Shown here in pieces: positions 3,688 to 63,135 of a DNA stretch of 64,000 bases. Position numbers and translations under genes: made by a program. The stretch is from a virus (Duplodnaviria; Heunggongvirae; Uroviricota; Caudoviricetes). Within the stretch, counting starts at the first letter, position 1; each line of letters opens with the position of its first letter. Location: positions 22,993-86,992 of the IMG/VR virus record IMGVR_UViG_3300032038_000047, one strand, 5' to 3'. The notes under the pieces were generated by a model. That model was not told the DNA's origin and made no database searches. It saw only the letters and a program-made list of their open reading frames with translations.

Positions 3688-3721
3688 TGAACAACCACAA
3701 ATTCAAAATGGGAGGAACCCA

Positions 3722-5122
3722 ATGTATCATTCGATCTATTTCGCTCCGTCGCCAGAGGTGTTTCAGTCTGGTATTATCGACAAGAACGAGACGGACAGGC
3801 AAAAAGTTATAGACATCTGGGAAGATTGGCACCTGGTTTCCTCCTCGCGTCCGCTGTTCCTTCCTCCGAAACTTAAAGACAGCTACGTAGATATTCCGGG
3901 TGGAGATGGAGCACTGGATCTTTCCGAGGTGCTAACCGGAACGCCTGTATACAGCAACCGAACCGGAAGCTGGGATTTGTACGTCATGAATGGCTACTGG
4001 GATTGGGTTGATGCATATTCCACCATCATGAACTATCTTCACGGACAGCGCATGTACGCGATTCTCGAAGATGATAAGGCCCATTACTACGAGGGCCGGT
4101 TCACAGTGAATACGTGGAGGAGCGATCCGAGCTACAGTAGAATTACCATTAACTATAACGTTGACCCTTATAAATATACGGTCCTTCAGAATGAATGGTA
4201 CTGGAATCCCTTTGATTTCGGGGCGCCTTTAGACGACAACATCAATACGGACGCAGATTACGGTCAATGGCTAGAGGCCAATAGAAAAGGCAACACTGCT
4301 TTGATGGGCCATACATATCACCATGAGAATACCATTAACGGCGTGGACCTGCTTAGCCCAGAGAACGAGAGCACAGCTCGGATAAGCGCTAATGATTTCC
4401 AACTCGCTTTCGGCGGCGGCGCCATCCCAGATTATCAAAACATGACCGTTGCTGGAACGCTTGAGACCGTAGTTAAGGGTATTGGTAAAAAGATTACGCC
4501 GACATTTGAAGCTGCTCTTCCAAGCACTACAGTAAACAGCGTAACGTACGTAGACACATGGAATTACAGTGGTTTGAACGGAAAGACACACGTCGGTTGG
4601 CAGACGCAGAGCCAAGCCGAAGATTTTAGGGTGGGCGACTATGCTCCAGTAAAACCAGCCGAAACTATATCCGAAGGTATGCTTCAGAGTGCAACACTAT
4701 ATCTGACAATCGACGGAACCACCTACACTATTCCTCTACATACGGAGGCAAATGACAGCCTCAATTCTGGGGCCTATGCACTTTTTGGGACGGTACCTAA
4801 TACGGATCCGACGCCGAAAGTAAAGCCATATGTAATCTGCGTTCCAAACGAGCTATCCGATACACCTGCCGGAACATATTTTAAAAGGGAGTCTGGCGAT
4901 ACCTGGACAAAAGCAGAACTAACCTGGACGCAGACCCCCGACACAACATACGGAGTCACTGTCCAGCAGATCTACCCGGATGGAACCAGCACGGAGCGTT
5001 TTCAGATCCCGTATGGAGGAAAAGTCTATATTCCAGGAATCCTAATCGTTGACGGTGCTAATACACTTATTTTCAGGGGCTGTGGAACAGTGACCATGAA
5101 CTACAGAGGAGCAAGCCTGTAA
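3722..5122 (+). CDS. Distal tail protein (Dit)-like, phage tail family protein
   Basis: 466 aa ORF immediately downstream of the TMP, which is the conserved siphovirus gene order. Its RBS lies in the AATTCAAAATGGGAGG element. Confidence 0.5.
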   Translation: MYHSIYFAPSPEVFQSGIIDKNETDRQKVIDIWEDWHLVSSSRPLFLPPKLKDSYVDIPGGDGALDLSEVLTGTPVYSNRTGSWDLYVMNGYWDWVDAYSTIMNYLHGQRMYAILEDDKAHYYEGRFTVNTWRSDPSYSRITINYNVDPYKYTVLQNEWYWNPFDFGAPLDDNINTDADYGQWLEANRKGNTALMGHTYHHENTINGVDLLSPENESTARISANDFQLAFGGGAIPDYQNMTVAGTLETVVKGIGKKITPTFEAALPSTTVNSVTYVDTWNYSGLNGKTHVGWQTQSQAEDFRVGDYAPVKPAETISEGMLQSATLYLTIDGTTYTIPLHTEANDSLNSGAYALFGTVPNTDPTPKVKPYVICVPNELSDTPAGTYFKRESGDTWTKAELTWTQTPDTTYGVTVQQIYPDGTSTERFQIPYGGKVYIPGILIVDGANTLIFRGCGTVTMNYRGASL

Positions 5123-6360
5123 TGTATTACATCTATATAGACAATCTGTCATGGGACAGTGCGGGCAATTTAAAACCACATCAGGAGCGGTTAATGTATA
5201 TGCCAGGCGTGGACGACCTGCTTGTGCTGAATCCGAAGCTCACGATGGAATTAAACAAGGCCGGTTCTCTGGAATTCAAAATGCCATATAACCATATCAT
5301 GCTGGAGGATCTTCATGAGCTTCGATCCAACGTAATTGTTCGGAGAGACCGGCGGACCATCTGGAAAGGGCGCGTCACCAAAATCGATCGCGATTTTTAC
5401 AAAAATGCCAGTGTTTACTGCGAAGGGGCGCTCGCGTTTCTTAATGATACGTTGGTTCCTCCTTACGAGTATAAAGAAACTACAACTACCGTTGCGCAAT
5501 TATTTGAATATTTCATTACACAACATGTGATAGAAGCTTCCGAGGGACGTAAAATCCAATTAGCAACCCCTTCTTGCGATGTCACCAAAGTGTCCTGGGA
5601 GGTAGAGCATTATCCGGAGCTGGTAATACCCGAGGGCAGCACCGGTGATGAGACCCACGTCATTGACCCAAACGACACGGAGATCAAAGTCGAAAACAAG
5701 TCATATCCTCAGACTCTGGAAGAACTGACGAGCGTTCTTGTAGATGAGTATGGTGGATATTTGTATCTGACATATGGCGCAAATGACAAGTACTATCTGG
5801 GCTATTACCAAAAGTATGGCGGATCCGAACAGAGAAGATCCCGACAGAAGATCATGTTCGGAATCAACCTGCTGGACTTCTCAGAAAGTCAAAGTGCGGA
5901 AGATCTCTTTACCCGTATCCGTCCCATCGGCGCTTCCGATCTTGCAACGGATCCTGCGGTTATTGAGAATAAGACCGCCATGCAGGAGTACGGGAAAATC
6001 ACCCGCACCGAAACGTGGAACGATATTGAAGATGCTAACGAGCTTCTTCGCAAGGGACGGAAACGGCTGCTTGAGGGGTCGCGCATCAGTCAGACGATTG
6101 CGATTAAGGCAGTTGACCTGCAATTGCTTCGGCCTGACGAGGAGGACGAGATCGAGCTTGGCGATAAAGTCGGCGTGTTCTCAGCTCCGCACGGTATCAA
6201 TCAGGAGTATATTTGTTCCCAGATCATTATCGATCTGCAGGATCCATCTAACACAGAGTACGTGTTCGGAGACGTATATACATCACTTACCGGCACACGG
6301 GTTTCCGGAGATACTTCCTCCGTCGTGCTGGACAATCAGGCTGAAACCCAGGAGTTTTAG
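5122..6360 (+). CDS. Tail-associated lysin / tail endopeptidase (Tal)-like protein
   Basis: 412 aa. Its start overlaps the stop of the Dit-like gene (ATGTAATG-style coupling). It sits at the third position of the TMP-Dit-Tal order. Confidence 0.45.
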   Translation: MYYIYIDNLSWDSAGNLKPHQERLMYMPGVDDLLVLNPKLTMELNKAGSLEFKMPYNHIMLEDLHELRSNVIVRRDRRTIWKGRVTKIDRDFYKNASVYCEGALAFLNDTLVPPYEYKETTTTVAQLFEYFITQHVIEASEGRKIQLATPSCDVTKVSWEVEHYPELVIPEGSTGDETHVIDPNDTEIKVENKSYPQTLEELTSVLVDEYGGYLYLTYGANDKYYLGYYQKYGGSEQRRSRQKIMFGINLLDFSESQSAEDLFTRIRPIGASDLATDPAVIENKTAMQEYGKITRTETWNDIEDANELLRKGRKRLLEGSRISQTIAIKAVDLQLLRPDEEDEIELGDKVGVFSAPHGINQEYICSQIIIDLQDPSNTEYVFGDVYTSLTGTRVSGDTSSVVLDNQAETQEF

Positions 6361-6393
6361 GGTTACGGCAATACGATGAAAGGAGAGTTGATT

Positions 6394-7083
6394 ATGGCTA
6401 ACATCACCAATGAACTCGACACAATCAGTTCAGGTGTATATGGCCGCGATATTAAAAGGGCTATTCATAGCGCTATCGACAAATTAAACCAAAACGGCAC
6501 AGAAGGTCTGTCTGATGCGGCTGCCAATGCGGCTGTAAGTGCCACCAAGTATCAGAGTATTGACAAGGCTTCTGCAGAAGGACAGGAGGCACTTAATTGG
6601 CTTGTAGAAAATGGGTTTATGCAGGGTGGAGAAGCGTTCACACCGATGAACAAAGACGTTGTCCGAGCATTTATTATTCTTAAACGTATGGGTCTCATCG
6701 GAAACGATGATTCACAGGGTGCCTCTGGGTATAAGATCTATACGTATTTCAGAGCGAGAGCAGACGCCAATGGCATCCCCCGATGGGCACAGCCAACCAT
6801 CTACAAGCTGATGCACAAAGTTGGCATAGATGGACATCCTTTGCTCCGTGGCGTAGACGATCCACTTACGTCAGACCCGGTGCTTGTTATTGGGGATGAC
6901 AACCAAGATTACCCATTCGTATATGATAAAACGCCTCTGTCCAGCTCGGAACAGCGTGGACTGTATAACATCAAACTGAATATTTCAAGCGAGATGCTCC
7001 GCACGCTGGTAATCATTGACCGGTCTGGTTATTTTGAGGATCTTGTTTGGACCTCGATAAATTGCGACGCTCAGCTGCCATAA
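6394..7083 (+). CDS. Hypothetical tail/baseplate-associated protein
   Basis: ORF with AAAGGAGAG RBS ahead of the ATG at 6394. The upstream M at 6376 lies inside the RBS. It sits within the tail module. Confidence 0.5.
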   Translation: MANITNELDTISSGVYGRDIKRAIHSAIDKLNQNGTEGLSDAAANAAVSATKYQSIDKASAEGQEALNWLVENGFMQGGEAFTPMNKDVVRAFIILKRMGLIGNDDSQGASGYKIYTYFRARADANGIPRWAQPTIYKLMHKVGIDGHPLLRGVDDPLTSDPVLVIGDDNQDYPFVYDKTPLSSSEQRGLYNIKLNISSEMLRTLVIIDRSGYFEDLVWTSINCDAQLP

Positions 7084-7098
7084 AGGACGTGATACACC

Positions 7099-7851
7099 AT
7101 GGCCAGATTAGTATGGGATCAGACGGCGGAACGGCTGTATGAGACCGGCGTCCGGTACTGCGTGGCGTATCCGTTTAACCGGAGCAGAGAGCATCCATAT
7201 TCTCCGGGTGTCGCATGGAATGGACTGACGGCAATCAAGCAGGACCCAAATGTCACGTTCAAGCCGATTTATGCAGACGACACCAAGTATTTGAATCTCC
7301 CCCATGAGTCTCTGAAGCTGAAAGTGGACGCCTATACCTATCCTGATACTATCGCCATCGCTGACGGTTCCGCTGATCTGGCACGGGGCCTTCGTCTTAG
7401 TCAGCAGCGGAGAAAGATATTTGGGCTCAGCTATGTATCCACGGTCGGAAATGACACAGAGCTCAACGACTATGGCTATAAGATTCATCTGATCTACGGA
7501 TGTATGGCCTCTCCGGTTGAGAAAGCGTTTTCGACCATAAATGACGGAATCGGGCCTGTGACATTTTCCTGGGACGTCATCACCAACCCCATTACACTGG
7601 AAGGATTCAAACCACTGTCGGTCATCACGGTTGACTCCGCTACCTGTGCACTGACTCCGGAAGGCCAATCCGGCCTTGTCAAGCTTCGGGATATTTTGTG
7701 GGGCACCGATACGACAGAACCATACCTTCCGCTGCCGTGGGAAGTGGTGGAGATATTTACGGCGAAGAAGTTCTATCTTGTGGATGAGCTTGATCAGATT
7801 CTTATGGATGAGGACGGAAACTTCTACATTGACGCTGATGGGGATTCGTGA
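7099..7851 (+). CDS. Hypothetical tail module protein
   Basis: 250 aa ORF co-directional with and tightly packed against the neighbouring tail genes. Confidence 0.5.
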   Translation: MARLVWDQTAERLYETGVRYCVAYPFNRSREHPYSPGVAWNGLTAIKQDPNVTFKPIYADDTKYLNLPHESLKLKVDAYTYPDTIAIADGSADLARGLRLSQQRRKIFGLSYVSTVGNDTELNDYGYKIHLIYGCMASPVEKAFSTINDGIGPVTFSWDVITNPITLEGFKPLSVITVDSATCALTPEGQSGLVKLRDILWGTDTTEPYLPLPWEVVEIFTAKKFYLVDELDQILMDEDGNFYIDADGDS

Positions 7852-7860
7852 GGTGAGGCA

Positions 7861-8055
7861 ATGAGCGATATTTATACTGCAGATAAAGAAACAGTCTCAG
7901 GCGTTGCACCGCACGACAAATACGTAATTGAGCAGGATAAAAAACTTCGCCTTATCACCAGAGAAGAAGCAGCTTTGGGAGAGAAAGGCGTGATTGCTGC
8001 ATGGTTAAATGACCGTGGAGAATTGCTGCTCCAACTGGGCGGAAAGGAGGACTGA
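7861..8055 (+). CDS. Small hypothetical protein
   Basis: 64 aa ORF with GGTGAGG RBS, tightly packed. Confidence 0.4.
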   Translation: MSDIYTADKETVSGVAPHDKYVIEQDKKLRLITREEAALGEKGVIAAWLNDRGELLLQLGGKED

Positions 8056-8059
8056 CGTC

Positions 8060-8509
8060 ATGCCGAATATACCACTTGCAACCAAGCCAAAAACCAATCA
8101 TATGCTGGACCATGACAGCTTCCTTACCGTCACAGAAGAGGGCCTCAACCGCCGGGTGGAGCGAAAAGATCTTGAGGTTGATGAAGATATCTCACTGATT
8201 CTGGATGGATACATTAACGAGCACGGTGAACTGATGTTGGTCCTTGGCGATATGTTTGACAACAACCCGGCGACTGTTGAATTTAACTATATGATACCCG
8301 GAGGCGGTGGCAGCGTTGGCGACTTTGAGGTCGGTCCAGTTGAAAGTGTGGGTGACAGACTGTCCAGTAGCGACGAAACGGTTGCTACAGCATTGGTCGC
8401 TATCTATGGGGTGCATCAGCTTGGACACTACAGCGGCTGTCACAGCGGCGAGAAGCTCAGCGACAGTACAGATATTAATTCGGTACATAGGGAGGAAAAT
8501 GCATCGTGA
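8060..8509 (+). CDS. Hypothetical protein
   Basis: GGAGGA RBS 6 nt upstream of the ATG at 8060, in frame with the longer ORF that begins at 8009. Confidence 0.45.
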   Translation: MPNIPLATKPKTNHMLDHDSFLTVTEEGLNRRVERKDLEVDEDISLILDGYINEHGELMLVLGDMFDNNPATVEFNYMIPGGGGSVGDFEVGPVESVGDRLSSSDETVATALVAIYGVHQLGHYSGCHSGEKLSDSTDINSVHREENAS

Positions 8510-9072
8510 ACGGTGTTATCAATAAAAACTGGCTTGGAATCAAGAATAGCATGCTTCTTAAGGGATATGGCGGCAGCGGGAAGTACTACAAAGCCGGTGT
8601 TACAGACGTGATTGACACTACAGGCGCTACGGCGGTTGCACACAGTATCACGTCCTTACTTGGAGATAATCTAGTCAATAGCAGTAGCACCTCGGCTGAA
8701 GCTCTTACTGTGCGTTTTGGTACGTCGAACACCCCGCCAACTGGAGAAGAACGGAATCTAGGCAGCCCCTGGACGAACAATCTAAAATATGTGAAAACAA
8801 CACGTAGCAATTTGACATGGAACGGGAATACTGCGTCACGTACATATACTGTTACTGTACAAAGCGAGGCGAGTGGTTCTGAAGTGATTCGAGAATTTGG
8901 CTTGTTCTGTCACGGGATTAGAACGAGTAGTAGCAACGGTTGTGACATTCTTCTATATCATGAGATTCTTGACGAACCCATTACACTCAACCAGTTTGAG
9001 ACCGCCACCATCTCCTTTACGGTCTCTATGACCTTCACTGAGCCGACCAGTGGGTGGGTGGCGCCGGCATGA
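8506..9072 (+). CDS. Hypothetical tail fibre-region protein
   Basis: 188 aa, Ser/Thr-rich. Start codon overlaps the previous stop (translational coupling). Confidence 0.45.
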   Translation: MNGVINKNWLGIKNSMLLKGYGGSGKYYKAGVTDVIDTTGATAVAHSITSLLGDNLVNSSSTSAEALTVRFGTSNTPPTGEERNLGSPWTNNLKYVKTTRSNLTWNGNTASRTYTVTVQSEASGSEVIREFGLFCHGIRTSSSNGCDILLYHEILDEPITLNQFETATISFTVSMTFTEPTSGWVAPA

Positions 9073-9263
9073 GCAGAGTTATAAATGTTGGGCCGGTTAC
9101 AGCTTATGGGCTGGCTGTAAAAAACGGATTTGTTGGGACTGAGCGGGAATGGCTGGAGAGTTTGCACGATCACACTACCTGGGTAGGAACCAAAGCCGAA
9201 TATGACGCGCTACCGGCTCATGACGAGGGAACTATCTACTATACGCTGGAGGAGTCTACATGA
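9054..9263 (+). CDS. Small hypothetical protein
   Basis: 69 aa ORF bridging the neighbouring genes with overlaps at both ends. Confidence 0.35.
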   Translation: MGGAGMSRVINVGPVTAYGLAVKNGFVGTEREWLESLHDHTTWVGTKAEYDALPAHDEGTIYYTLEEST

Positions 9264-10759
9264 TTAATGCCCCCACTAGTTACGCGGCGGCTATATATCA
9301 GGGCGAACGAAACATAGAAGAAGTACGAATCGGCAACAATAAAGTTTGGCCAACCATGGGGGAACCGTCAATTTTTCAGCTAACGTTGACGTCAAAGCTA
9401 GACATCGATATTTATTATACCCAGACAGCCCCTTCCAGTGTATTGGTAAACTGGGGTGATGGCTCTGAGCCAGGATACACGCCGGCTTTGAATGCACATC
9501 TTCATCACCGTTATTATGAGCCAGGTGACTATGAACTACAGCTGACTTCCCGAAAGGGGTGTACGTGGAGTCCAGGTGCAGTTGATCAAAACGATTCTAC
9601 TATCAACTATGGATTCTTAGGCAGTTATGGATCAACAAAGGACGGTACGACACCGGAGCTGACAGGATTTGCTCTTTCTAAAGAAGCCAGGCTTGATGTT
9701 CCATATGCGTTTTATGGCTGTACCGGACTTACCTCGGCGTCTGTTCCGGCGTTTATTTCTTCCACGAGCGATTATATTTTTGAAGCATGTTCTGGTTTAA
9801 CGGAAATCTCCCTTCCGGACTCCATGCAAACCATCGCTTGGGGTTTGCTATTCGACTGCTCAGCGCTTGTAGAAATTACGTTACCCTGCAATTTGAGCTC
9901 CATTAGTGGTCATGCGTTTCGCGGAACGGGTATACGAACCATTGATATTCCGAGCACCGTTACCAGCATTGGCGAAAATGCATTTGCTTATTGCACGGAT
10001 CTTGAGGCTTTTTATTTCCCACCGCTTGTGACCGCTATTGCGAACGATGTACTCCGTAACTGCACGTCCCTCTCGGTAGTCACCATTCCAGAAGGCGTTG
10101 TATCAATCGGTTCGCAGGCGTTTTTCCTCTGCTCCAGTTTAAGCAGCTTGTCACTGCCGGCATCATTAACGAACATATATGGAGACAACAATACGGACGG
10201 CAATATGATTTGCTTCCAGCGTAGTGGCATAACTAACTTTCATGTTGCAGAGGAGAATCCAGCATTCTGTGATGTCGATGGAGTGCTGTATACTAAGGAC
10301 CGATCCACGTTGCTGGTATATCCGCCGGCAAGGCAAGGGGCATATACAGTACCAAGAAAAGTTACTGTCCATTATCATGCATTTTATTATTGTGTTGGCT
10401 TAACAAAGATAACCTTATCAACTGGTGTGGTACTTGCGGGTGCAGGTGATGGGCATACGTTCGGAGCATCGGCCTTCCAATTCTGCACGGCCCTTATTGA
10501 GGCGGATCTTGGGTTAACAACCATTTACGGGCATGTGTTCCAGAACTGCACTGCGCTTGAGAAGGTTTGGCTGCGGTCCACGTGTACCACTATAACTGCT
10601 TCTGCCGTCAGCCAGTCGCCGTTTTACACGACAAACAAAAACTGTGTACTGTATGTAGCGGCCAGCAGCAAGCCATCTGGCTTTGGAAGCTATTGGGATA
10701 ATTATGACGGTTCAACAAAACTATCCGTGGTGTACAGACAAACCACTAGCCCATTCTAA
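9260..10759 (+). CDS. Leucine-rich repeat (BspA-type LRR) protein, candidate receptor-binding or host-adhesion protein
   Basis: Repeated roughly 22-aa units of the form L..I.IP.SVTSIG..AF..C..L (for example 'ITLPCNLSSISGHAFRGTGIRTIDIPSTVTSIGENAFAYCTDLE'), which is characteristic of the Treponema/BspA LRR family. It is located at the distal end of the tail module. Confidence 0.7.
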   Translation: MINAPTSYAAAIYQGERNIEEVRIGNNKVWPTMGEPSIFQLTLTSKLDIDIYYTQTAPSSVLVNWGDGSEPGYTPALNAHLHHRYYEPGDYELQLTSRKGCTWSPGAVDQNDSTINYGFLGSYGSTKDGTTPELTGFALSKEARLDVPYAFYGCTGLTSASVPAFISSTSDYIFEACSGLTEISLPDSMQTIAWGLLFDCSALVEITLPCNLSSISGHAFRGTGIRTIDIPSTVTSIGENAFAYCTDLEAFYFPPLVTAIANDVLRNCTSLSVVTIPEGVVSIGSQAFFLCSSLSSLSLPASLTNIYGDNNTDGNMICFQRSGITNFHVAEENPAFCDVDGVLYTKDRSTLLVYPPARQGAYTVPRKVTVHYHAFYYCVGLTKITLSTGVVLAGAGDGHTFGASAFQFCTALIEADLGLTTIYGHVFQNCTALEKVWLRSTCTTITASAVSQSPFYTTNKNCVLYVAASSKPSGFGSYWDNYDGSTKLSVVYRQTTSPF

Positions 10760-10771
10760 GGAGGTGTCGTT

Positions 10772-11311: not shown

Positions 11312-11335
11312 AATCAAAATGGGAGGCAGATTCCA

Positions 11336-12886: not shown

Positions 12887-12887
12887 T

Positions 12888-17352: not shown

Positions 17353-17420
17353 AAAGAATGTAGTTTAATTGGTAAAACGCTACTTAGAGATGGAGGTTCA
17401 ACCCCTCCCATTCTTTTTTC
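17353..17420 (+). ncRNA. tRNA-like small RNA with acceptor stem, D-arm and T-arm but a truncated anticodon region
   Basis: AAGAATG pairs with CATTCTT as a 7-bp acceptor stem. There is U8 and a D-arm GTTT-AATTGGTA-AAAC. The T-arm GGAGG-TTCAACC-CCTCC is followed by TTTTTT. Only 12 nt remain where the anticodon arm and variable loop should be. Confidence 0.4.
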
Positions 17421-49882: not shown

Positions 49883-49899
49883 GAAAGGAGAATTATATT

Positions 49900-50208: not shown

Positions 50209-50242
50209 CTGTATAACAAATTACAAGAAAAGGAGAGCAACA

Positions 50243-51277: not shown

Positions 51278-51279
51278 CA

Positions 51280-51915: not shown

Positions 51916-51933
51916 AACGAGGGAGGTGATCCG

Positions 51934-52850: not shown

Positions 52851-52880
52851 TTAGTGACTACGGAAAGGAGGCCGTCATGT

Positions 52881-55800: not shown

Positions 55801-57044
55801 TTACCTTCGATAAGGAGGCGAAAAAGAAGGTCAGCTTCTACAGAGGGGAAGATCCTAAGGAGGGCGGCTATGTATATGCCGAGCCCGGGATCTACTGGGA
55901 TGTGGCGCTGCTTGATATTGCGTCCATGCATCCGTCAAGCATCGTAGCGGAAGAACTGTTTGGCCCGATTTATACCGCTCGATTTAAGGAACTTCTGGAT
56001 GCCCGTATCGCCATCAAGCATAAGGACTTCGACAAAGCCCGGACAATGCTGGACGGCAAGCTGGCGCCTTATATTCAGAAGGTTATCGACGGTGAGATTA
56101 CGACCAAGGATCTGGCCTATGCCCTGAAGATTGCGATCAACTCGGTATACGGGCTGACTGCTGCCAACTTTGAGAACCCCTTCCACGACCCCAGGAATCA
56201 AGACAACATTGTGGCGAAACGAGGCGCGCTGTTCATGATCAACCTTAAACATGAGGTGCAGAGCAGAGGCTTTACAGTGGCCCATATCAAGACCGATTCC
56301 ATCAAGATTCCAAATGCCACGCCGGAGATCATCCAGTTCGTTACGGACTACGGAAAGCTGTATGGATATTCCTTCGAGCACGAGGCGACCTACAGCAAGA
56401 TGTGCCTGGTGAACGACGCTGTGTACGTGGCTCGTTACGCCGCCAAAGAGAAGTGTGAGGAGCTTTACGGATATATTCCGGGAGACAACTACGAGCACGG
56501 CGGCGACTGGACGGCCACCGGCACACAGTTCCAGGTTCCATATGTCTTTAAGACGCTCTTCAGCCATGAGCCAATCGAGTTCAAGGACATGTGCGAGACT
56601 AAGGCGGTCAAGACAGCATTATATTTGGACATGAACGAGAACCTTCCGGATGTGGAAGCGGAAGAGAAGGAACTGGTGAAGCTTAAGAAGAAGCTGGCCG
56701 ATGAAAAGAAGCCTCCTTCCGAGGCGGATCGGGCTGCGATTGAGCAGCGTGTCGCAAAGCTCTCGGTTGATATTCCGAAGGGGCACGATTACCAGTTCGT
56801 CGGAAAGGTCGGATGCTTCTGCCCGGTCAAAGCAGGTCTTGGCGCCGGCAAGCTGATGCGTCAGGGCGCCAATGGATATTCTGCTGTAGGCGGAACCACC
56901 GGCTACCGCTGGATGGAGGCCGAGAAGCTGGCTCAGACCCCAAACTGGGATCAGTACATTGACAAAACCTATTATGCAGCGATGGTTGACACCGCTGTGG
57001 AAGCTATTTCGAAATACGGAGACTTTGAAGAGTTCTCTGCATGA
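52881..57044 (+). CDS. Replication fusion protein: P4/D5-like primase with SF3 helicase, plus a C-terminal family-B DNA polymerase with proofreading
   Basis: Walker A 'VFYGSAGTGKSTIL' (D5/P4-type SF3 helicase). A prim-pol-like 'IVIDFDIKND...GQGIHLHYIY'. Exo I 'IFFDVEVFPN'. PolB motif A 'LDIASMHPSSI' (DxxSLYPS) and motif C-like 'VAHIKTDSIKI' (..DTDS). The start is GTG at 52881 or ATG at 52890. Confidence 0.7.
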   Translation: MDFMLVSVKSLKKDEMVIYPKFIVTSSKDLMVRGGDFYAVWDDEKGMWSTDQDDVTRLIDHELDQYKEEHADLAGAKVLHMWDADSGMIDKWLKYVQKQLRDNYHPLDEKLIFANSPIDRMDYASKRLPYALEKAETPAYEELISTLYSPEERKKIEWAIGSVVAGDSKKIQKFLVFYGSAGTGKSTILNIIQQLFDGYCTSFDAKALGSSSGEFALEPFKKNPLVAIQHDGNLSRIEDNTRLNSLVSHEEMTVNEKFKSQYTARFQAMLFMGTNTPVRITDSRSGIIRRLIDVSPTGNTVPLKRYNQLKEQVKFELGGIAQHCLEVYESDKDAYENYIPTSMIGATNDFYNFVEEYYEEFIAEDPVSLNFAWILYKHYCDDAKVSYPYGKRVFKEELKNYFREFEDRGKNKKGELTRSLYRGFRMERMGYSVQADAESGQAEAADQEAEVNPSAEEAVDIPPWLIFDKTESLFDKEYGDCPAQYANDEGTPLKSWDNVQTTLADISTDKLHYVRTPLQLIVIDFDIKNDSGQKSLERNIAAASKWPATYAELSKSGQGIHLHYIYNGDVAALSRVYDDNVEVKIFNGKSSLRRMLTRCNDRPIATINSGLPLKGDRKMVNHRTIKTEAGLRSMIKRNLQKEIGGFTKVSVDFIYNDLEAAYNAGFKYDVSDLRPAVFSFAGRSHNNKDYCTRLVRKMKFKSEDPAEPEAYPDISEVDLAYAEEAQKADTGEAKADGPLIFFDVEVFPNLCVIVYKAAGCPAVKMINPSAEEVRQLMRMRLVGFNNLGYDNYILYAIVQGFSVAQLYKLSRRLINNERVGMREARNVSYTDIFDFSATKQSLKKWEIALDIHHQELGLPWDEPVPEELWPKVAEYCVNDVVATEALFFHQNADWTARQILADVADKTVNDTTNTLTTAIIFGGNRNPQGEFNYRDMGKMPSGHSGLKNWPGLDCDPEFTVFDDLGRPVFPGYSFTFDKEAKKKVSFYRGEDPKEGGYVYAEPGIYWDVALLDIASMHPSSIVAEELFGPIYTARFKELLDARIAIKHKDFDKARTMLDGKLAPYIQKVIDGEITTKDLAYALKIAINSVYGLTAANFENPFHDPRNQDNIVAKRGALFMINLKHEVQSRGFTVAHIKTDSIKIPNATPEIIQFVTDYGKLYGYSFEHEATYSKMCLVNDAVYVARYAAKEKCEELYGYIPGDNYEHGGDWTATGTQFQVPYVFKTLFSHEPIEFKDMCETKAVKTALYLDMNENLPDVEAEEKELVKLKKKLADEKKPPSEADRAAIEQRVAKLSVDIPKGHDYQFVGKVGCFCPVKAGLGAGKLMRQGANGYSAVGGTTGYRWMEAEKLAQTPNWDQYIDKTYYAAMVDTAVEAISKYGDFEEFSA

Positions 57045-57063
57045 TATTTAGGAGGAATTAATT

Positions 57064-57600
57064 ATGGCTTACATTGACAACATTATTCTGCGGGACGTGA
57101 AGGTCATGTCCAAGAACTTCAGCGGCATGGAGAAGATCTATAATGGCCGCACCGTGAACACCAAGGGCAGCCGTAATTTCTGCCCGGAGCTGCCGGAAAA
57201 TCTGGCACTCCAGATGAAGGAGGAGGGCTGGAACGTCAAGCACACCAATCCTCAGGATCCGGACGAGCCCGTGCGCTATTATATTCAGGTGGCGCTTCAG
57301 TTCCGGGACCGGTACAACGAGCCCGTCCGCCCCAAGTTCCGTCCGAAGGTTGTTCGGGTGGACAGCCATGGGGATCATATTATGCTCAATGAGGACACGG
57401 TAGAAGAATTGGACGATGACGAGATCATCAAGGCCAACATCAAGATCCGCGGTCGTGAGTATGAGCCCGGCAAGATCAAGGCCTATGCCAAGGTGCTCTA
57501 CGCCTGGGTGGACGAAGCAGATCCCTTCGCTAACGACTTCCGGGAGGCGGAAGACTTCCCCGGCGCTGATGATGAGCTGGACGACTTGCCCTTTGATTGA
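57064..57600 (+). CDS. Hypothetical acidic protein
   Basis: 178 aa with TTAGGAGGAATTAATT RBS. Confidence 0.45.
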   Translation: MAYIDNIILRDVKVMSKNFSGMEKIYNGRTVNTKGSRNFCPELPENLALQMKEEGWNVKHTNPQDPDEPVRYYIQVALQFRDRYNEPVRPKFRPKVVRVDSHGDHIMLNEDTVEELDDDEIIKANIKIRGREYEPGKIKAYAKVLYAWVDEADPFANDFREAEDFPGADDELDDLPFD

Positions 57601-57684
57601 TATTTGAGAGCACGCTTTTTGCGTAACCCTGCCCCTGATGCCCTGGCCGGTGTCAGGGGCTTTACTGATATTTAGGAGGCGCTT

Positions 57685-58917
57685 GTGAGCATCTCACTGT
57701 ATGAGCACCAACAGCAGGCGCTTGAGAAACTGAGGAACGGCTCGGTTCTCTGCGGCGGGGTTGGGTCTGGAAAGTCCCGGACGGCCATTGCCTATTACTT
57801 TGTGAAAGAATGCGGCGGCCGGATCGACGGAAAGGCCCATGGATATTCTGAGAATTACGTTCCGATGGAGAATCCGAAGGATCTGTACATCATCACCACC
57901 GCCCAGAAGCGGGATAAGAAGGAGTGGGAGGCGGAGTGTATTCCATTCCTTCTCATCGGCTCTCCTGATATTTGTCCCTACAGCATCAAGGTGACCGTCG
58001 ATTCCTGGAACAACATCGCCAAGTACAAGGATGTGACGAACAGCTTCTTTATATTTGACGAACAGCGGGTGGTCGGCTATGGCAAGTGGTCCAAAACCTT
58101 CATTCGGATCTCACGGCGGAATCACTGGATCCTGCTCAGTGCCACGCCCGGCGACACCTGGATGGACTACATCCCGGTGTTCATCGCCAATGGATATTAC
58201 CGTAACAAAACAGACTTTGTGAACACTCATGTGGTCTATGCGGCATATTCCAAGTTCCCAAAGGTGGAACGGTATATGGGGGAGCGGCATTTGGAAAAAC
58301 TGCGGGAGCAGATCCTTGTCAACATGGACTACCACAAACCGGCCCAGTCGCACCACATTGATATTCTGACCGAGTACGACCGGGAGACGTTCAAGGACGT
58401 GATCCGCCGCAGGTGGAATATTTACGAGGACAAGCCCATCGTCAACAGCGCCGAGCTGTTCTATCTGATGCGTAAAGTGGTGAACAGCAGCCCGGCCAGA
58501 GCCGAGGCCATCCGGAAGCTGGCGGATGCCCATCCGAAGGCAATTATATTCTACAACTTCGACTACGAGCTGGAGATTCTCCGGGCGATTCCCTATGCGG
58601 ACGGAACCGTGGTCGCCGAATGGAATGGCCACCGGCATGAGCAGATCCCAAAGGCGGAGCGCTGGGTATATCTGGTGCAGTACTCCGCCGGAGCCGAAGG
58701 ATGGAACTGCATCGAGACCGACACCACCATCTTCTACTCTCAGAACTATTCTTACAAGATCCTGGTTCAGGCGTCCGGACGGATCGACCGGCTGAACACG
58801 CCGTACAAAGACTTATATTTTTACCATCTCAAGTCAAGAGCCTGGATCGACGCGGCCATTGCACGGGCCCTGAAAGCCAAGAAAAACTTCAACGAGCGCT
58901 CTTACAAGCTCCATTGA
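57685..58917 (+). CDS. DEAD/DEAH-like superfamily-2 DNA helicase
   Basis: Motif I 'GGVGSGKS', motif II 'FDEQ' and motif III 'SATPG'. GTG start with TTAGGAGG RBS. Confidence 0.65.
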   Translation: MSISLYEHQQQALEKLRNGSVLCGGVGSGKSRTAIAYYFVKECGGRIDGKAHGYSENYVPMENPKDLYIITTAQKRDKKEWEAECIPFLLIGSPDICPYSIKVTVDSWNNIAKYKDVTNSFFIFDEQRVVGYGKWSKTFIRISRRNHWILLSATPGDTWMDYIPVFIANGYYRNKTDFVNTHVVYAAYSKFPKVERYMGERHLEKLREQILVNMDYHKPAQSHHIDILTEYDRETFKDVIRRRWNIYEDKPIVNSAELFYLMRKVVNSSPARAEAIRKLADAHPKAIIFYNFDYELEILRAIPYADGTVVAEWNGHRHEQIPKAERWVYLVQYSAGAEGWNCIETDTTIFYSQNYSYKILVQASGRIDRLNTPYKDLYFYHLKSRAWIDAAIARALKAKKNFNERSYKLH

Positions 58918-58920
58918 TAT

Positions 58921-58948
58921 TCCGCAAGAAATACAACGGCTATAATAG
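58921..58948 (+). promoter_or_regulatory. Copy of the phage promoter motif upstream of the VRR-NUC gene
   Basis: TCCGCAAGAAATACAACGGCTATAATAG. Confidence 0.4.
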
Positions 58949-59005
58949 GAGAGATAGGAGATGCGCCTTACATCTCATTTATTTTTGAGTCGAGGAGGCT
59001 CTTCT

Positions 59006-59302
59006 ATGCGGGAAAACCAGTTTCAAGCGAGACTTATCAAGGACATCAAGAAGCGCTTGCCCGGTTGCATCGTGCTGAAGAATGACCCGGATTATATTCA
59101 GGGCATTCCGGATCTCACGGTGCTGTACGGGAACCGATGGGCGTTTCTGGAGTGCAAACGCTCCGAAACAGAGTCCCATCAACCGAATCAGGACTATTAT
59201 ATTTCTACGGCCGATGCAATGTCATTCGGTCGTTTTGTTTTTCCCGAAAACAAGCAGGAGGTACTTGATGAACTTCAACAATCACTACAATCTGATTGGT
59301 AA
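59006..59302 (+). CDS. VRR-NUC domain nuclease
   Basis: 'GIPDLTVLYGNRWAFLECKRSE' contains the PD-(D/E)xK core typical of VRR-NUC. Confidence 0.6.
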   Translation: MRENQFQARLIKDIKKRLPGCIVLKNDPDYIQGIPDLTVLYGNRWAFLECKRSETESHQPNQDYYISTADAMSFGRFVFPENKQEVLDELQQSLQSDW

Positions 59303-59834
59303 GCACGCATTCCTGGGAGCCAGCAACTACCACTGGCTCAACTACGACATGGAGAAATTGATATCCACTTACCGAAACCGGCAGGCGGTTCAGCGGGGAA
59401 CCGAGCTCCATGCCTTTGCCAAGAATGCGATTGATCTGAGAATCAAGCTCCCACGCAACAAACAGACCCTCAGCATGTATGTGAACGATGCCATTGGCTA
59501 TCGGATGACTCCGGAGCAGGTGCTTTGTTATTCCGACAACTGCTTTGGAACCGCCGACGCCATCAGCTATAACGAGAATCAGAAGCTTTTGCGTATTCAT
59601 GACCTGAAAACCGGTGCCACGCCGGCTTCCATGAACCAGCTTCTTATTTACATGGCCATGTTCTGCCTGGAGTACGATATTGACCCGTCCAAGATTGACG
59701 CTGAGCTCCGCATCTACCAGAGCGACGAAGTGAACGTTTTGAATCCGACGACGGATGATATTATGCCGGTCATTGAGGCCATGATTGACGCCGATGAATG
59801 CATCTCACAATTACAAGCGGAGGGTAGAGACTGA
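59268..59834 (+). CDS. Hypothetical protein
   Basis: AGCAGGAGG RBS with ATG at 59268, in frame with the longer ORF at 59082. Confidence 0.45.
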   Translation: MNFNNHYNLIGKHAFLGASNYHWLNYDMEKLISTYRNRQAVQRGTELHAFAKNAIDLRIKLPRNKQTLSMYVNDAIGYRMTPEQVLCYSDNCFGTADAISYNENQKLLRIHDLKTGATPASMNQLLIYMAMFCLEYDIDPSKIDAELRIYQSDEVNVLNPTTDDIMPVIEAMIDADECISQLQAEGRD

Positions 59835-62563
59835 TGGACACAATGTTTACTGATATTTTGGACTTGCCGTTCCCGGATGACCAACTTGCGCACTACGGAA
59901 CACCTCGGCACAGCGGACGCTATCCCTGGGGTTCCGGTAAAAATCCGCAGCGCCATAAGAACTTTCTGACCATGGATGCGGAGCTCAAGAAGCAGGGCCT
60001 CAGTGAAAAAGAGCGGGCTCAGGCTATGGGCATGTCCACCACCGAACTGCGGGCCATGAAATCTATTGCCAGCGACGCGCACAAGGCGGAAGTGGCAGCA
60101 CAGGTGATTAAACTCCGCAAGACAGGTATGTCCTTTGACGCCATTGCACAGGAAACCGGTGTTTCAGCCTCCAGCGCCAGAAATATGGTAAAAGAGGATT
60201 ATGCCATTAAGCTTAGTTCCGACCGCAAGCTGGCTGAAGTGCTCAAAGAGCAGGTGGAACAGCACCCGTATCTGGATATTGGCGCCGGTGTCGAGCGACA
60301 GCTCGGCGTATCCGACACGAAGCTGAAAACAGCGGTCAAGATTCTGGAGCAGGAAGGATATTCGAAGAAGTACCTGAAAGTCGAGCAGGCCGGAAATCCC
60401 GGACAGTTTACGACGGTTATGGTGCTGGCCAAGGACAACGTGACCTATGAGGAGCTCAGGGAACACAAAGACCAGATTATTTCTCCCCAAGGCGTATTTT
60501 CCAATGACGGCGGAAATACCTTTCTTGGCATCAAACCGCCGGTCAGCATCGATTCCAAACGTATTGATATTTGCTATGCCGAGCAGGGCGGAACCGAGAA
60601 AGACGGCCTGATTGAGATCCGTCCCGGTGTCCCTGATATTTCCCTTGGCGATAACCGCTACGCCCAGGTCCGTATTGCGGTCGACGGAACGCACTATCTG
60701 AAGGGCATGGCCGTCTACAACGACAAACTTCCCGACGGTGTTGATATTCGCTTCAATACCAACAAGGATTCTTCCAAATCCAAGATGGAAGTTCTCAAAG
60801 AGATGAACACCATCAAAGCAACCGGCGAAGTGGATATGGATAATCCCTTTGGAGCCACTATCCGTCAGTATGAATACGAGGATGAAAAAGGCAATAAACA
60901 TTTGTCCGCCATCAATATCGTAAATAACGATGAAGACTGGGCCAAATGGTCCAAAACTCTGTCCTCTCAGATGTTGTCGAAGCAGTCTCCGGCCTTGGCC
61001 AAGCAGCAACTGGATATTACGTACGATCGCAAGAAGCAGGAATTCAACGAGATCATGGCGCTCACAAACCCGGTTCTCAAGAAACATCTGCTGGAGTCTT
61101 TTGCCGACGGTTGTGACTCCGCTGCTGTGGACCTGAAGGCCGCCGCCCTTCCGAGACAGGCTACCAAGGTTCTTATTCCAATGCCGAGCCTCAAAGACGA
61201 CGAGATTTTCGCCCCGTCCTACAACAACGGCGAGCAGGTCGTGCTGATCCGATATCCTCATGGCGGAACCTTTGAAATTCCGACGCTGACTGTAAACAAT
61301 AAGGCAAAAGAGGGCATTGACACCATTGGCAAGGACGCCCGAAACGCGGTTGGTATCAACGCCAAAGTGGCGGAGCGGTTATCCGGCGCCGATTTTGACG
61401 GCGATACGGTTACGGTTATTCCCATTGTCGGACAGAAGATCAAGACCAGCAACGCTTTGGAAGGCCTGAAGGACTTTGACCCGAAGCATGAGTACCGCGC
61501 CTACGAAGGGATGCCCAAGACCTGCAAGGAGAACGGTTTCCAGAAGCAGATGGAGATGGGCAAGGTCTCCAATCTGATCACCGACATGACCATTCGGGGT
61601 GCTACAGAGGATGAAATCGCCAGAGCGGTCCGGCATTCCATGGTCGTCATCGATGCGGAGAAGCACAACCTGGACTGGAAGCGTTCCTACCAGGAGAACC
61701 GGATTGCCGAGCTGAAAGAGAAGTATCAGGGCGGCGCCAACAAGGGTGCCTCCACGCTTATTTCGCAGGCAAGCTCCGATACCAGAGTGAATGAACGCAA
61801 ATCCGGCTACAAGATTGACCCCGATACCGGTGAGAAGATCTATACCGAGACCGGCCGAACCTACAAGACCGAGAAGGTCATGAAGGACGGCAGCGTCAAA
61901 ACCGAGATTCATAAAGCCCAGGAGAAGTCCACAAAGATGGCGGAAGCCTCTGATGCGTTCGAGCTCTCCTCCGGCACCAGAATCGAGAATGTGTACGCGA
62001 CGCATGCCAACAAGCTTAAAGCTTTGGCCAACGAAGCCCGCAAAGCATACGTGGCTACCGAAAACCCCAAACGGAACCCAACTGCGGCAAAAGAGTATGC
62101 GCCCGAGGTATCCTCTCTGCTGGCAAAACTGAACATTGCGCTGAAGAATGCGCCGAATGAGCGAAAAGCACAGCTTGTGGCCAGTAAAGTGGTTGAGACG
62201 AAAATTGAGCACAATCCAGAGCTGAAAGATGATGACGAGCATTTGAGCCGCGTCAGACGCCAGGCTCTTGCGGAAGCCCGTGCCAGAAGCGGAGCTCTGA
62301 GCAGGAAAGAGCGCAATATCGATATCACAGACCGGGAATGGGAAGCCATCCAGGCCAACGCCATCAGCCCGACCCAGCTCAAGACCATTTTATCCAATAC
62401 GGACCTTGACAAGCTGAAGGAACGCGCCACTCCGCGCAATAACAAGTCCCTGAACAGTGCCGCATTATCAAGAGCCAGATCGCTGCTGAACAGGGGCTAC
62501 ACATGGGCTGAAGTTTCCGAGCAAGTCGGGATCTCTGTCAGCACGTTGCAGAAGCAGATCTGA
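59834..62563 (+). CDS. Large (909 aa) hypothetical protein with several HTH-like segments
   Basis: N-terminal HTH-like repeats ('GLSEKERAQAMGMSTTELRAMKS', 'GMSFDAIAQETGVSASSARNMVKE') and a C-terminal 'YTWAEVSEQVGISVSTLQKQI'. No ATPase motifs, so it is not a terminase. It lies directly upstream of the CTATTGATATTT iteron array. Confidence 0.5.
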   Translation: MDTMFTDILDLPFPDDQLAHYGTPRHSGRYPWGSGKNPQRHKNFLTMDAELKKQGLSEKERAQAMGMSTTELRAMKSIASDAHKAEVAAQVIKLRKTGMSFDAIAQETGVSASSARNMVKEDYAIKLSSDRKLAEVLKEQVEQHPYLDIGAGVERQLGVSDTKLKTAVKILEQEGYSKKYLKVEQAGNPGQFTTVMVLAKDNVTYEELREHKDQIISPQGVFSNDGGNTFLGIKPPVSIDSKRIDICYAEQGGTEKDGLIEIRPGVPDISLGDNRYAQVRIAVDGTHYLKGMAVYNDKLPDGVDIRFNTNKDSSKSKMEVLKEMNTIKATGEVDMDNPFGATIRQYEYEDEKGNKHLSAINIVNNDEDWAKWSKTLSSQMLSKQSPALAKQQLDITYDRKKQEFNEIMALTNPVLKKHLLESFADGCDSAAVDLKAAALPRQATKVLIPMPSLKDDEIFAPSYNNGEQVVLIRYPHGGTFEIPTLTVNNKAKEGIDTIGKDARNAVGINAKVAERLSGADFDGDTVTVIPIVGQKIKTSNALEGLKDFDPKHEYRAYEGMPKTCKENGFQKQMEMGKVSNLITDMTIRGATEDEIARAVRHSMVVIDAEKHNLDWKRSYQENRIAELKEKYQGGANKGASTLISQASSDTRVNERKSGYKIDPDTGEKIYTETGRTYKTEKVMKDGSVKTEIHKAQEKSTKMAEASDAFELSSGTRIENVYATHANKLKALANEARKAYVATENPKRNPTAAKEYAPEVSSLLAKLNIALKNAPNERKAQLVASKVVETKIEHNPELKDDDEHLSRVRRQALAEARARSGALSRKERNIDITDREWEAIQANAISPTQLKTILSNTDLDKLKERATPRNNKSLNSAALSRARSLLNRGYTWAEVSEQVGISVSTLQKQI

Positions 62564-62629
62564 TTTCACTGATATTCTCAGAATACTTGTGAAAAGGGCT
62601 TTTGCACCTGAAAAAGCATCCAACAGCAA

Positions 62630-63135
62630 AACGGCGCTATTGATATTTGCATATGCTTCGGATGTCACTCGCATTTAGACGTTAAAACGGCGCAAACCGG
62701 TCCAAATGGGCTATTGATATTCTCCCGAAGGATTCCTGGCCTGTTTGGACCTATTTGGGCCTGTTTACGGTATGTGTGTATGCGTCCATTGATGTTCTTG
62801 CGAAGGCCCTTTAGAGAAGAGGCTGTAGTACGGCTGTATATGGGGTGCCTTTTTATTGATATTTGAACGCTGTCGCTTGATCTGATCCTACAAAACCGCA
62901 ACGGAGCTCTATGTTGTTTGAAATCAATATAACGGGCCTGGCTATTGATATTTGAGTCCCCATAAGAGACGATTCTGCCGTCTATCAGAAGCGTTTTCCG
63001 TACTCTAAACTGGAATTCTGCGCGCACGGCTATTGATATTTAGAGGGGGTACCCTTGGCTGTCAGCAGCACAGATAAAAGCGTTTGCGCTTATGCTTGCT
63101 GTGTTAGCTGCCACCCCATGTATTGATATTTGAAT
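62630..63135 (+). repeat. Iteron array of 6-7 spaced copies of (GG)CTATTGATATTT
   Basis: Copies at about 62636, 62712, 62786 (degenerate CCATTGATGTTC), 62858, 62944, 63032 and 63120. The spacing is roughly 75-90 bp. The region is non-coding. Confidence 0.6.

Follow-up and report, generated by a model that had tools for sequence, protein, structure and literature searches.

What reads a short word that a phage repeats along one strand of its genome and almost never carries on the other? The question is raised by a 64,000-base stretch of tailed-phage DNA (positions 22,993 to 86,992 of IMG/VR record IMGVR_UViG_3300032038_000047; hereafter the window), in which a first-pass annotation, made by eye, had noticed an excess of GATATT(T/C) on the + strand. 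The window makes up the right-hand 64 kb of a linear phage contig of 87 kb (ENA ERZ27256903) and holds 78 gene calls, 76 of them on the + strand; throughout its family all or nearly all genes are oriented rightward. The word proves to be selected site by site, and its reader is possibly the RNA polymerase that these phages encode.

Polarity and composition controls

Exact counting over the window finds GATATT 175 times on the + strand and four times on the − strand (binomial p 1e-46), with composition predicting about 16 per strand. GATATT[TC] occurs 145 times against none, and the more general [GT]ATATT[CT] 208 times against seven, so that the excess seen by eye is real and stronger than had been stated. 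The informative positions are [TG][GT]ATATT[TC], with T or G favoured at −2, and the information content of the motif is about 12 bits.

The annotation had also held that the word follows the DNA strand and not codon usage. Synonymous-codon shuffles that preserve the protein sequence and each gene's codon usage agree: the + strand genes are expected to hold 38.3 ± 4.7 copies of GATATT and hold 134 (z ~19), and the reverse complement AATATC is expected 11.6 ± 2.6 times and is seen four times. In a scan of all hexamers, GATATT, ATATTC and ATATTT stand at z 17-18. Copies inside genes fall in all three reading frames, as claimed (90, 18 and 26), and a further 38 are intergenic, at a density equal to that of coding sequence. 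Within the tyrosine integrase gene (17968..19038, − strand) four copies keep the + orientation and none has the other, again as described. The top polar hexamers of three control phages with genes on one strand (Mushu, Lagaffe and Lugh) are largely codon-usage effects, at z 2-6. Shuffles, frame counts and control words together rule out a codon or composition artefact; the frequencies on the two strands are dissimilar, and composition and codon bias are insufficient to make them so. One-mismatch neighbours of GATATT occur at normal frequency, which rules out conversion by mutation or repair of the very-short-patch (VSP) kind.

The word leaves its mark on codon choice and on gene ends. Asp-Ile is coded GAT-ATT in 78 of 95 early-region pairs, where the codon-pair test expects 16, and the dipeptide itself is over-represented 1.8x in the early region. 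Sites are 3-4 times denser at gene boundaries. The TGA of TGATATT is the stop codon in 9 of the 76 + strand genes called, and the seven gene boundaries that had been read as built on TGATATT all carry it.

Spacing and selection at single sites

Between 19 and 62.5 kb there are 176 sites with a modal gap of 75-125 bp, and only four gaps are shorter than 60 bp where 37 were expected (the minimum across 2000 simulations was 21). We define permissive positions as Asp/Tyr-Ile positions able to carry the motif. With no neighbouring site inside 60 nt, 87 of 103 such positions carry it; with one, 6 of 22 do (p 3e-7). The latter rate is about that of background, so close sites are not avoided but merely unselected. 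One site per ~60-100 nt suffices, and the range of each is local and footprint-sized.

Retention between relatives is far above that of other words. Two relatives that are 91.5% identical (L004 and L007) share 94-98% of their sites, and L050 and L007, at 89.3% identity, share 89-94%, against 54-58% for arbitrary 7-mers between the same relatives. Several sites of the replicase gene align exactly in as many as 17 of the 18 relatives that bear the motif, at columns that include those encoding Tyr-Ile-Tyr, Leu-Ile-Phe and Ile-Ile-Phe; motif-free relatives keep the amino acids at those columns without the word. The dispersed sites are old, and each is kept by selection.

Distribution along the window

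The site list, the spacing and the use of permissive positions mark out a dense domain of 182 [GT]ATATT[CT] sites on the + strand (17488..60749, ~4 per kb), which starts 72 bp to the right of a tRNA-like element. It spans the integrase gene, to which it is antisense, the early and replication genes, and the 5′ third of the RNA polymerase gene. The motif fills 70-86% of permissive positions in four early and replication sub-regions and 86% in the polymerase gene (6/7; few positions there are permissive), and this use is uniform across 45 kb, with no decay from an end. The late tail and lysis genes (118..13254, + strand) have 19 forward and two reverse copies, ~1.5 per kb, the late module standing at 1.46 per kb against 3.5-4.5 per kb; the motif fills 52% of their permissive positions against a background of ~20%. 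The accessory block that follows has no sites from 13436 to 17350 (+ strand), and codon use there is at background. Its motif share over 13.4-17.4 kb is 20% (1/5), equal to background, and it is the only region that looks unselected.

The annotation had singled out the tape-measure gene, crediting it with about two copies, and had suggested a mosaic origin of the tail segment. The count was near the mark, the open reading frame (14-3631) having three GATATT and one TATATT, but low density is a property of the whole late module and not of that gene alone. A mosaic origin is not supported either: the contrast of early over late recurs in relatives whose late genes have diverged along with the early ones (L004 and L007, 87% identical in late genes and 91% in early genes), so weaker selection fits better than recent import.

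The tRNA-like element (17354..17416, + strand; Rfam tRNA, 52 bits, 63 nt) separates the accessory block from the integrase gene; it is probably an attP site carrying part of a host tRNA gene, and ARAGORN calls no tRNA at this element. The phage of the window is temperate, as is Faecalibacterium phage Oengus. A search for host flanks by integrase scans of genome and metagenome collections gave only distant islands. Near the end of the accessory block stands a G-rich terminator hairpin (16695-16725), and then a perfect TTGACA-17-TATAAT promoter (16799-16827, + strand) that faces rightward, to attP and, in antisense, the integrase gene, with three terminator-like + strand hairpins between it and that gene. 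In an integrated prophage this promoter would be parted from the early genes.

The terminal array and the genome ends

An array of seven further sites on the + strand (62571..63131) occupies the 1.1-kb non-coding spacer that follows the polymerase gene, 0.9-1.4 kb from the right end. Six of them have an extended 14-bp box, GCTATTGATATTTG, and the seven sites, direct repeats of one another, are spaced by 71, 74, 142, 89, 88 and 90 bp. The sequences between boxes are mutually unrelated with fold z-scores near 0, which rules out structured small RNA genes there; Rfam finds only the tRNA-like element at 17.35 kb. The array also differs from an iteron-type origin, where closely spaced, phased and essential repeats of ~17-22 bp would be expected, in its 14-bp box, its spacing of 71-142 bp and its lack of helical phasing, and in being absent from L004 and reversed in L131.

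The annotation had called this an iteron and had suggested that the dispersed word is a trace of it. A link does exist, for the core is shared and the flanks co-vary. Homologous arrays in relatives have 4-12 boxes with 5′ parts of their own (TATTG-, ATAAAG- or AGGGTC-ATATT), and where TTG, AAG or GTC precedes ATATT in the array, TG, AG or C precedes it in the dispersed copies. The direction proposed was wrong: the array is gained or lost between close relatives, being absent from L004 through an 800-bp insertion or deletion relative to L007, and the dispersed sites are old and conserved, so the dispersed motif is no trace of the array.

Arrays are found only in motif-dense loci. In the relative L045 the array comes after the last gene, and another relative, L131, with a polymerase 70% identical to that of the window, has the same extended box three times in reverse orientation. 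The terminal spacer that follows the last large gene is the one place where reverse sites in general are enriched, by ~3x (15 in 24.9 kb, versus 56 in 302 kb of genome body; p 1e-4), and that of L131 has five. The last small gene (PHROG 4303; 63659..63901, + strand) is conserved family-wide and lies after the array in the window and before it in L045. In its terminal non-coding region, at 2400-2700, L045 also has about eight 41-bp units (GAGAGTTGTGAGGATCT...) in tandem, flanked on either side by a group of GGGTCATATTTGTGGGC boxes.

The window closes on a G/C hairpin, GGGGGAGGGGG...CCCCCCTCCCACAT (63959..64000), at which the source contig ends. L131 terminates at a homologous ...CCCCCTCCCTGCAT, and Streptomyces phage Bilo at ...CCCCCCTTCTGCAT plus a 3′ overhang; judged by these termini, the right end of the window is taken to be the physical terminus of the genome on that side (cos). 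On the far left, ATATTT occupies positions 4-9 of Bilo and of Streptomyces phage CricKo and position 22 of Gordonia phage Schwartz33, and in Oengus it flanks a probable cos palindrome.

Several hairpins resemble one another in this family. Right ends are built from hairpins of the G5AG5/C6TC3 type, and left ends have a C4-5/G4-6 palindrome beside ATATTT (CCTATATTTTCCCCCGCGGGG in Bilo). The late/accessory unit ends at 16.7 kb with a near-copy of the hairpin found at the right end, and further terminal-hairpin loci lie at L131 13975-14016, at the left ends of L056, L128 and L129, and at L053 31717-31750.

Relatives and other phages

The polymerase, a 909-aa protein, belongs to a family that supplies the last large gene of Lactococcus phage 1706, Oengus, Rhodococcus phage ReqiPepy6 and many Arthrobacter, Gordonia, Streptomyces, Microbacterium and Curtobacterium phages. 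It has 250 records among the cultured-phage genomes searched, mostly actinophages, plus Oengus and many gut and rumen viral contigs. Most of the 87 viral contigs that we recovered via polymerase or replicase have the polar word, with forward to reverse counts such as 76:0 (L070), 82:2 (L079), 69:0 (L012) and 68:2 (L084). In Oengus, TGATATTT stands at 33:0 in the first 50 kb and 36:2 in the whole genome, and is dense only in the early half.

A codon-shuffle scan independently recovered the same word from Bilo, a phage of 61% GC. ATATTY occurs forward and reverse 30:0 in Bilo, 35:0 in CricKo, 74:0 in Schwartz33 and 119:0 in the right arm of ReqiPepy6 (40-76.8 kb, the part examined, which is dense throughout save the polymerase gene), where 3-11 per strand are expected. 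Pooled over Schwartz33, CricKo and Bilo, ~21 reverse copies are expected and none is seen (p ~8e-10). No gap in these four phages is shorter than 60 bp, the shortest in Schwartz33 being 87 bp. The base preceding ATATT is almost never A in actinophages; an A there would make the reverse core AATAT. The ATATT word is polar in phages of hosts from two bacterial phyla (Clostridia; actinobacteria).

Which genes carry the word varies with the clade. Early density exceeds late density in the window, Oengus, Schwartz33 and the IMG/VR relatives L002, L004 and L007, and 26 kb of late genes in Oengus are at background, with no selection. Bilo has its sites almost only in late genes (the early half, 19.5 kb, has two); CricKo has sites in early and late genes alike.

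The bias is not seen in three unrelated Faecalibacterium prausnitzii phages (Lugh, Mushu and Lagaffe), and 160 kb of gut Clostridia-like chromosomal DNA, which is not the true host genome, has no excess over Markov expectation. A word that is polar in unrelated hosts, and unbiased in unrelated phages of the same host, argues for a reader encoded by the phage family; a host-defined signal (Chi, host sigma factor or host RNase) is unlikely. Full-text literature searches for the word and for polar phage motifs returned nothing relevant, and the genome announcements of Gordonia cluster DJ describe only a different 50-bp promoter-like repeat. Cluster DJ phages are 51% GC in hosts of 67% GC, which is conceivably tied to the motif.

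Candidate readers

The foremost candidate is the 909-aa product of the gene at 59834..62563 (+ strand), a predicted two-barrel (QDE-1/RdRP-like, for RNA-dependent RNA polymerase) single-subunit RNA polymerase with N- and C-terminal helix-turn-helix domains. Its library matches are PHROG 4291 and helix-turn-helix Pfam entries, and one homologue carries Pfam RdRP PF05183. In SGADFDGD (residues 517-524) the residues S, G, A, D, D, G and D are invariant and F521 is kept in at least 90%, in alignments of 10 and 25 sequences. The protein thus has the DxDGD loop of double-psi beta-barrel polymerases; YonO of phage SPbeta has QFDNDGD at residue 535. An AlphaFold model (pLDDT 79.9, pTM 0.67) matches QDE-1 in Foldseek at E 1e-10 (probability 1.0), plant RDR2 at 6e-7 and Thermus phage P32 gp64 / P74 gp62 at 3e-6. 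Going by this model, the protein has the QDE-1-like two-barrel RNA polymerase fold; a phmmer search with it against PDB sequences gave nothing. The gene has five sites, all within its first 900 bp, and none in its last 1.8 kb; the homologous gene has no sites over 2.7 kb in ReqiPepy6 and two in Oengus. The ReqiPepy6 record (L133, locus 33544-36258) labels the homologue a structural protein.

The alternative candidate, as a primase, is a 1396-aa replicase fusion (52854..57044, + strand) made of a D5_N/SF3 helicase, a weak Prim-Pol/AEP signal (~residues 524-582) and a family B polymerase, with 21-27 sites in its gene. Besides the replicase, the replication module encodes an annealing protein, a helicase and two nucleases, a VRR-Nuc endonuclease and a Cas4-type exonuclease. 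The scanned window proteins include no DnaG-type primase, and no gene for an FtsK/SpoIIIE-type translocase turned up among the scanned proteins.

Three other ideas were dropped. A 330-aa early protein (23615-24607, + strand) combines an XRE-type helix-turn-helix (residues 17-68) with sigma-70 region 4 (148-197, E 3e-14) and ends with an RNA polymerase alpha C-terminal domain (246-305, E 1.5e-17), and from these domains it looks like a mimic of, or an adaptor for, parts of the host RNA polymerase. It has no full-length homologue across 50,697 cultured phage records, and it was rejected as the reader for want of a homologue in Oengus or any cultured phage. PHROG 4079, considered by phylogenetic profile, was rejected because Arthrobacter phage Gordon carries it with only a weak bias. 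The promoter P_YonO of SPbeta led nowhere as a model, the two GATATTT in the yonN-yonK spacer being not significant. The window holds two PHROG 4079 paralogues (29611-30165 and 49256-49882) and four of PHROG 2152 (DUF6353; 27214-28167, 28184-29158, 46593-47396 and 50099-51277), which in most family members lie within a conserved cassette upstream of the replicase.

A possible signal for the phage polymerase

Polarity, per-site selection, a local range, co-variation of boxes with dispersed copies and a family-wide distribution are what the reader has to explain. It should be encoded by the family, sensitive to direction, linked to a class of genes, active once per footprint interval, and able to shift its specificity in the 5′ flank. 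Among the roles offered by the annotation, a polar recognition sequence is supported by this; guidance of the terminase or KOPS type, and sites for a DNA-binding or modification enzyme, are conceivable. Our best explanation, advanced tentatively and at less than even confidence, is that B-ATATT-Y is an orientation-dependent signal for the family's own QDE-1-like single-subunit RNA polymerase.

The reader would then be a phage-encoded machine moving rightward along the genome, and ATATT(T) would be the AT-rich melting and initiation core of its recognition site. Copies on the sense strand would let it engage the genome every ~100-300 bp, and opposite copies, which would direct a highly processive polymerase against genes and replication, would be purged. 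Sites within ~60 bp would add nothing if one enzyme occludes the next. The boxes with a longer phage-specific 5′ part would be stronger versions of the site. We infer both that the polymerase is the reader and that the effect is initiation rather than pausing or termination.

The extended boxes directly follow the gene for this hallmark enzyme, which has helix-turn-helix domains of its own, and this favours it as the reader. Co-variation of the flanks is the pattern of co-evolution between promoters and single-subunit polymerases. A preference for early or late genes that depends on the clade is easy for a transcription programme to produce and hard for replication, packaging or end protection. 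A precedent is offered by the two-barrel RNA polymerases of Thermus phage P23-45, each with a short phage-specific promoter motif, and relatives without the enzyme are also without the motif (10.1101/2022.12.01.518664). The motif-poor polymerase gene and the structural label in ReqiPepy6 suggest an enzyme made late for the virion that serves the early genes; going by that one label, the polymerase may be virion-borne and transcribe the early region.

A number of points weigh against the polymerase. Every motif-bearing phage examined has it, but so do Arthrobacter phages Circum and Gordon and Lactococcus phage 1706, at 39-54% identity, with no polar ATATT (47:88, 46:28 and 42:137). A density of 3-4 promoters per kb is, to our knowledge, unmatched by any phage polymerase, and ~12 bits is little for a promoter. 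The array is dispensable between 91%-identical relatives, and the three reversed boxes of L131 are a misfit for an array of late promoters. Ordinary sigma-70-type promoters are present in the early region as well. At sequence level there is no link to YonO, against which the family profile scores a probability of 0.3% in HHalign. The idea that the polymerase gene is exempt from the motif had to be rejected in part, as it has few permissive positions and uses six of its seven.

Promoters of the T7/T3/SP6 class and of P23-45 share with this motif a short phage-specific word on the sense strand, a variable specificity part, an AT-rich core, co-variation with the phage, and strong copies beside the polymerase gene. 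They number 10-20 per genome, whereas here there are ~200, mostly in coding sequence and evenly spaced. The T4 late promoter TATAAATA is likewise ~8 bp, AT-rich and −10-like with no −35, and has many copies in one orientation, often in upstream genes. It is read by host RNA polymerase with gp55, gp33 and the sliding clamp, at ~0.3 per kb, and we know of no report of a strict reverse purge or of regular spacing for it.

Other explanations

An unlikely rival is that the word is a loading site for a phage factor on early transcripts or on the exposed non-template strand. With ~60-100 nt of RNA covered from each site, the factor might block termination (for example by Rho), process RNA, or trigger early mRNA decay as T4 RegB does. 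Selection is local and one site per ~60-100 nt is enough, close to the length of free RNA that Rho needs. The early density, the empty accessory block and the 3-4x excess at gene boundaries suit such a factor, as does the position of the dense domain inside a putative rightward unit between similar G-rich hairpins at 16.7 and 64.0 kb, and loss of the reverse complement from the same strand would leave the motif unpaired. It is countered by genes on the − strand, where the + orientation persists: over putative minus-strand genes of motif-bearing relatives, integrase included, there are 20 forward sites against five reverse. The three terminator-like hairpins between the 16.8-kb promoter and the integrase gene also speak against it, as do the sites of Bilo in late genes. 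No candidate protein tracks the motif, PHROG 4079 having failed, and this scheme gives no role to a spacer whose sole purpose is to house an array.

We give similarly low odds to a polar barrier or guide for a machine that tracks along DNA, after the manner of Tus-Ter, KOPS/FtsK (KOPS, FtsK orienting polar sequences) or the class II pause signal of T7. As a barrier, forward copies would stop or orient leftward movers such as antisense polymerases and leftward forks, and a reverse copy would block an essential rightward process. Total absence of reverse sites in four actinophages, with A almost never at −1, is what this would give, and so is their enrichment solely in the terminal spacer (~3x, p 1e-4; five in L131). 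Each site acts locally, and the orientation is that of transcription and, by analogy with lambda, of packaging. Yet the scheme has no identified barrier protein or translocase behind it, every site of the array in the window is forward, there is no obvious reason why early and late genes should be selected differently, and suppressing antisense transcription seems too small a gain for 80% saturation of permissive codons. KOPS and the SpoIIIE recognition sequences (SRS) are alike in strand skew (>90%), in a purged orientation and in a change of orientation near the terminus. They are read by FtsK/SpoIIIE at ~0.1 per kb in bacterial chromosomes, and we know of no such translocase in this phage family.

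Two variants of the polymerase reading, doubtful when taken together, change where or on what the enzyme works. A polymerase carried in the virion would, once ejected, load repeatedly at co-oriented ATATTY, beginning with the ATATTT of the far left end; by making RNA rightward from hundreds of sites it would draw the DNA into the cell while expressing the early genes, and a single reversed site, which would push DNA back out, would not be tolerated. Alternatively, the enzyme would use the + strand itself, as single-stranded DNA or RNA, for its template and start purine-initiated chains opposite the 3′ Y, and would then be a sequence-specific primase or an antisense-RNA synthase.

Priming is related to the last of these but would concern replication: the word would be a lagging-strand priming site, read on single-stranded DNA by the Prim-Pol-like domain of the replicase or by the QDE-1-like polymerase. 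A fork that moves with transcription has the + strand as its lagging-strand template. The motif is both short and dense and is needed locally, and its 3′ Y implies a primer that starts with A or G. The scan for primases gave no DnaG type and just the weak Prim-Pol/AEP signal in the replicase, and the entry titles of structures of QDE-1, the structural homologue, name DNA templates, including a 12-nt DNA template with ATP and 3′-dGTP. The contrast of early and late genes is left unaccounted for, and the two sites in the early half of Bilo, together with the unselected late genes of Oengus, mean that priming cannot depend on the motif; we regard this explanation as improbable.

The annotation had raised Chi-like protection from AddAB. 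The Chi-rich lambdoid phages LLS and MD8 show what this looks like: 20 of 23 Chi sites of LLS are in the active top-strand orientation and clustered toward the right end, and MD8 has 32:0 (PMC12315714). The same geometry applies here to an attenuator of host AddAB/RecBCD entering from the right cos end, the motif strand having its 3′ end at the right terminus and a cluster of sites 0.9-1.4 kb from it. Likeness to the LLS/MD8 case extends to a polar top-strand enriched oligomer, a right-biased cos genome and recently acquired segments that lack the word (PMC12315714). However, Chi is defined by the host and occurs there about once per 1.9 kb, whereas this word crosses phyla, from Clostridia to three actinobacterial genera, is ~7x denser and uniformly saturated over 45 kb, and has a local range in which a second site within 60 bp brings no benefit. 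Lugh, Mushu and Lagaffe, of the same host, do without it, the gut Clostridia-like DNA (not the true host) has no excess over Markov expectation, phage 1706 lacks the Chi of L. lactis, and the window phage has its own module of exonuclease and annealing protein. Protection of this kind is very unlikely.

As stoperators, the sites would bind an immunity repressor that keeps the early region silent in a prophage. In cluster A mycobacteriophages such as L5 stoperators are asymmetric, dispersed and in one orientation, with variants by immunity group, much as the word here has phage-specific variants; the window phage, like Oengus, is temperate, and what the dense domain covers is the lytic early region. 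Stoperators, bound by L5 gp71, are repressor-dependent sites of 13 bp, mostly intergenic, with 24-36 in a genome; here there are ~180 sites, mostly in genes and each under selection, and strictly lytic relatives have them as well. Gordonia cluster DJ phages are lytic, without integrase or repressor (PMC9671010). Polarity in these lytic phages is nevertheless 74:0, with an early bias like that of the window; this rules out a lysogeny repressor as the explanation in general, and the odds of it applying here are slight.

That the word has no function of its own, being a product of codon or strand composition, of context-dependent mutation or repair, or of avoidance of Type III/ISP restriction, deserves almost no credence: all genes lie on one strand and other phages have polar hexamers at 40:0 or above, but such control words are codon-explained where GATATT is not, the word fills all frames and intergenic DNA with its neighbours undepleted, its sites are retained at 89-98% against 54-58%, and restriction avoidance accounts for the loss of one orientation and not for an 11-fold gain of the other. 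T7 has its EcoP15I sites in one orientation only, Type III enzymes needing inversely oriented sites. The two cases share an asymmetric hexamer in a single orientation, but that of T7 is passive escape from a host enzyme, with no selection for forward copies and no conservation across hosts.

Other repeated elements

Three further repeats were noted. The first, AATTCAAAATGGGAG, has eight copies within two mismatches (six exact) against 0.2 expected, at + strand positions 3700, 11311, 12474, 15529, 16228, 20247, 20774 and 22850. At least one of them (3700-3714) is immediately upstream of a start codon (3722), which suggests a conserved translation-initiation cassette; the similar TCAAAATGG is polar in Oengus. 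Second, caagttCTATAATGGAACCTACGGGTTCT followed by (G/T)ATATTTTT recurs at ~19920-19950, 27205-27235 and 29565-29595, with weaker copies at 16821, 17344, 45703 and 46012. This element combines a TATAAT-like hexamer with a GAACC/GGTTC hairpin that has a T run, and from its make-up would be either a promoter or a terminator cassette; in the same connection, CTATAATGGAAC has 15 copies within two mismatches where 4.4 are expected. Third, GCTGGA is polar in the window (61:13), in Lugh (L127; 71:17) and in Oengus (79:14). In Lugh it stands at 1.9x the codon-shuffle expectation (z 5.8), mainly as xxG-CTG-GAx, and its polarity is probably a codon-pair effect.

Implications

The uptake sequences (USS/DUS) of Haemophilus and Neisseria resemble this word in a frequency of about one copy per kb, in occupying all frames, in being spaced more evenly than chance and in shaping peptide content; they differ in lying in either orientation and in their purpose, which is DNA uptake by competent cells. 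Like Chi and KOPS, uptake sequences exposed a machine that tracks along DNA, and we know of no polar oligomer in a phage that is as dense, as strictly one-sided and as evenly spaced as ATATTY. Selection for it is strong enough to bend protein sequences, as the surplus of Asp-Ile shows. Strand-locked ATATTY is a simple marker by which these phages can be recognised and their metagenome contigs oriented. For an RdRP-like polymerase to which no role has been assigned, it supplies a concrete sequence for work on binding, initiation, pausing and 5′ ends. If the reader is not the polymerase, there is a new polar DNA transaction to be found in phages. Should loading from the virion or reading of the template strand prove true, a phage polymerase would have a polar 'self code' spread over the whole genome, for which there is no described counterpart.

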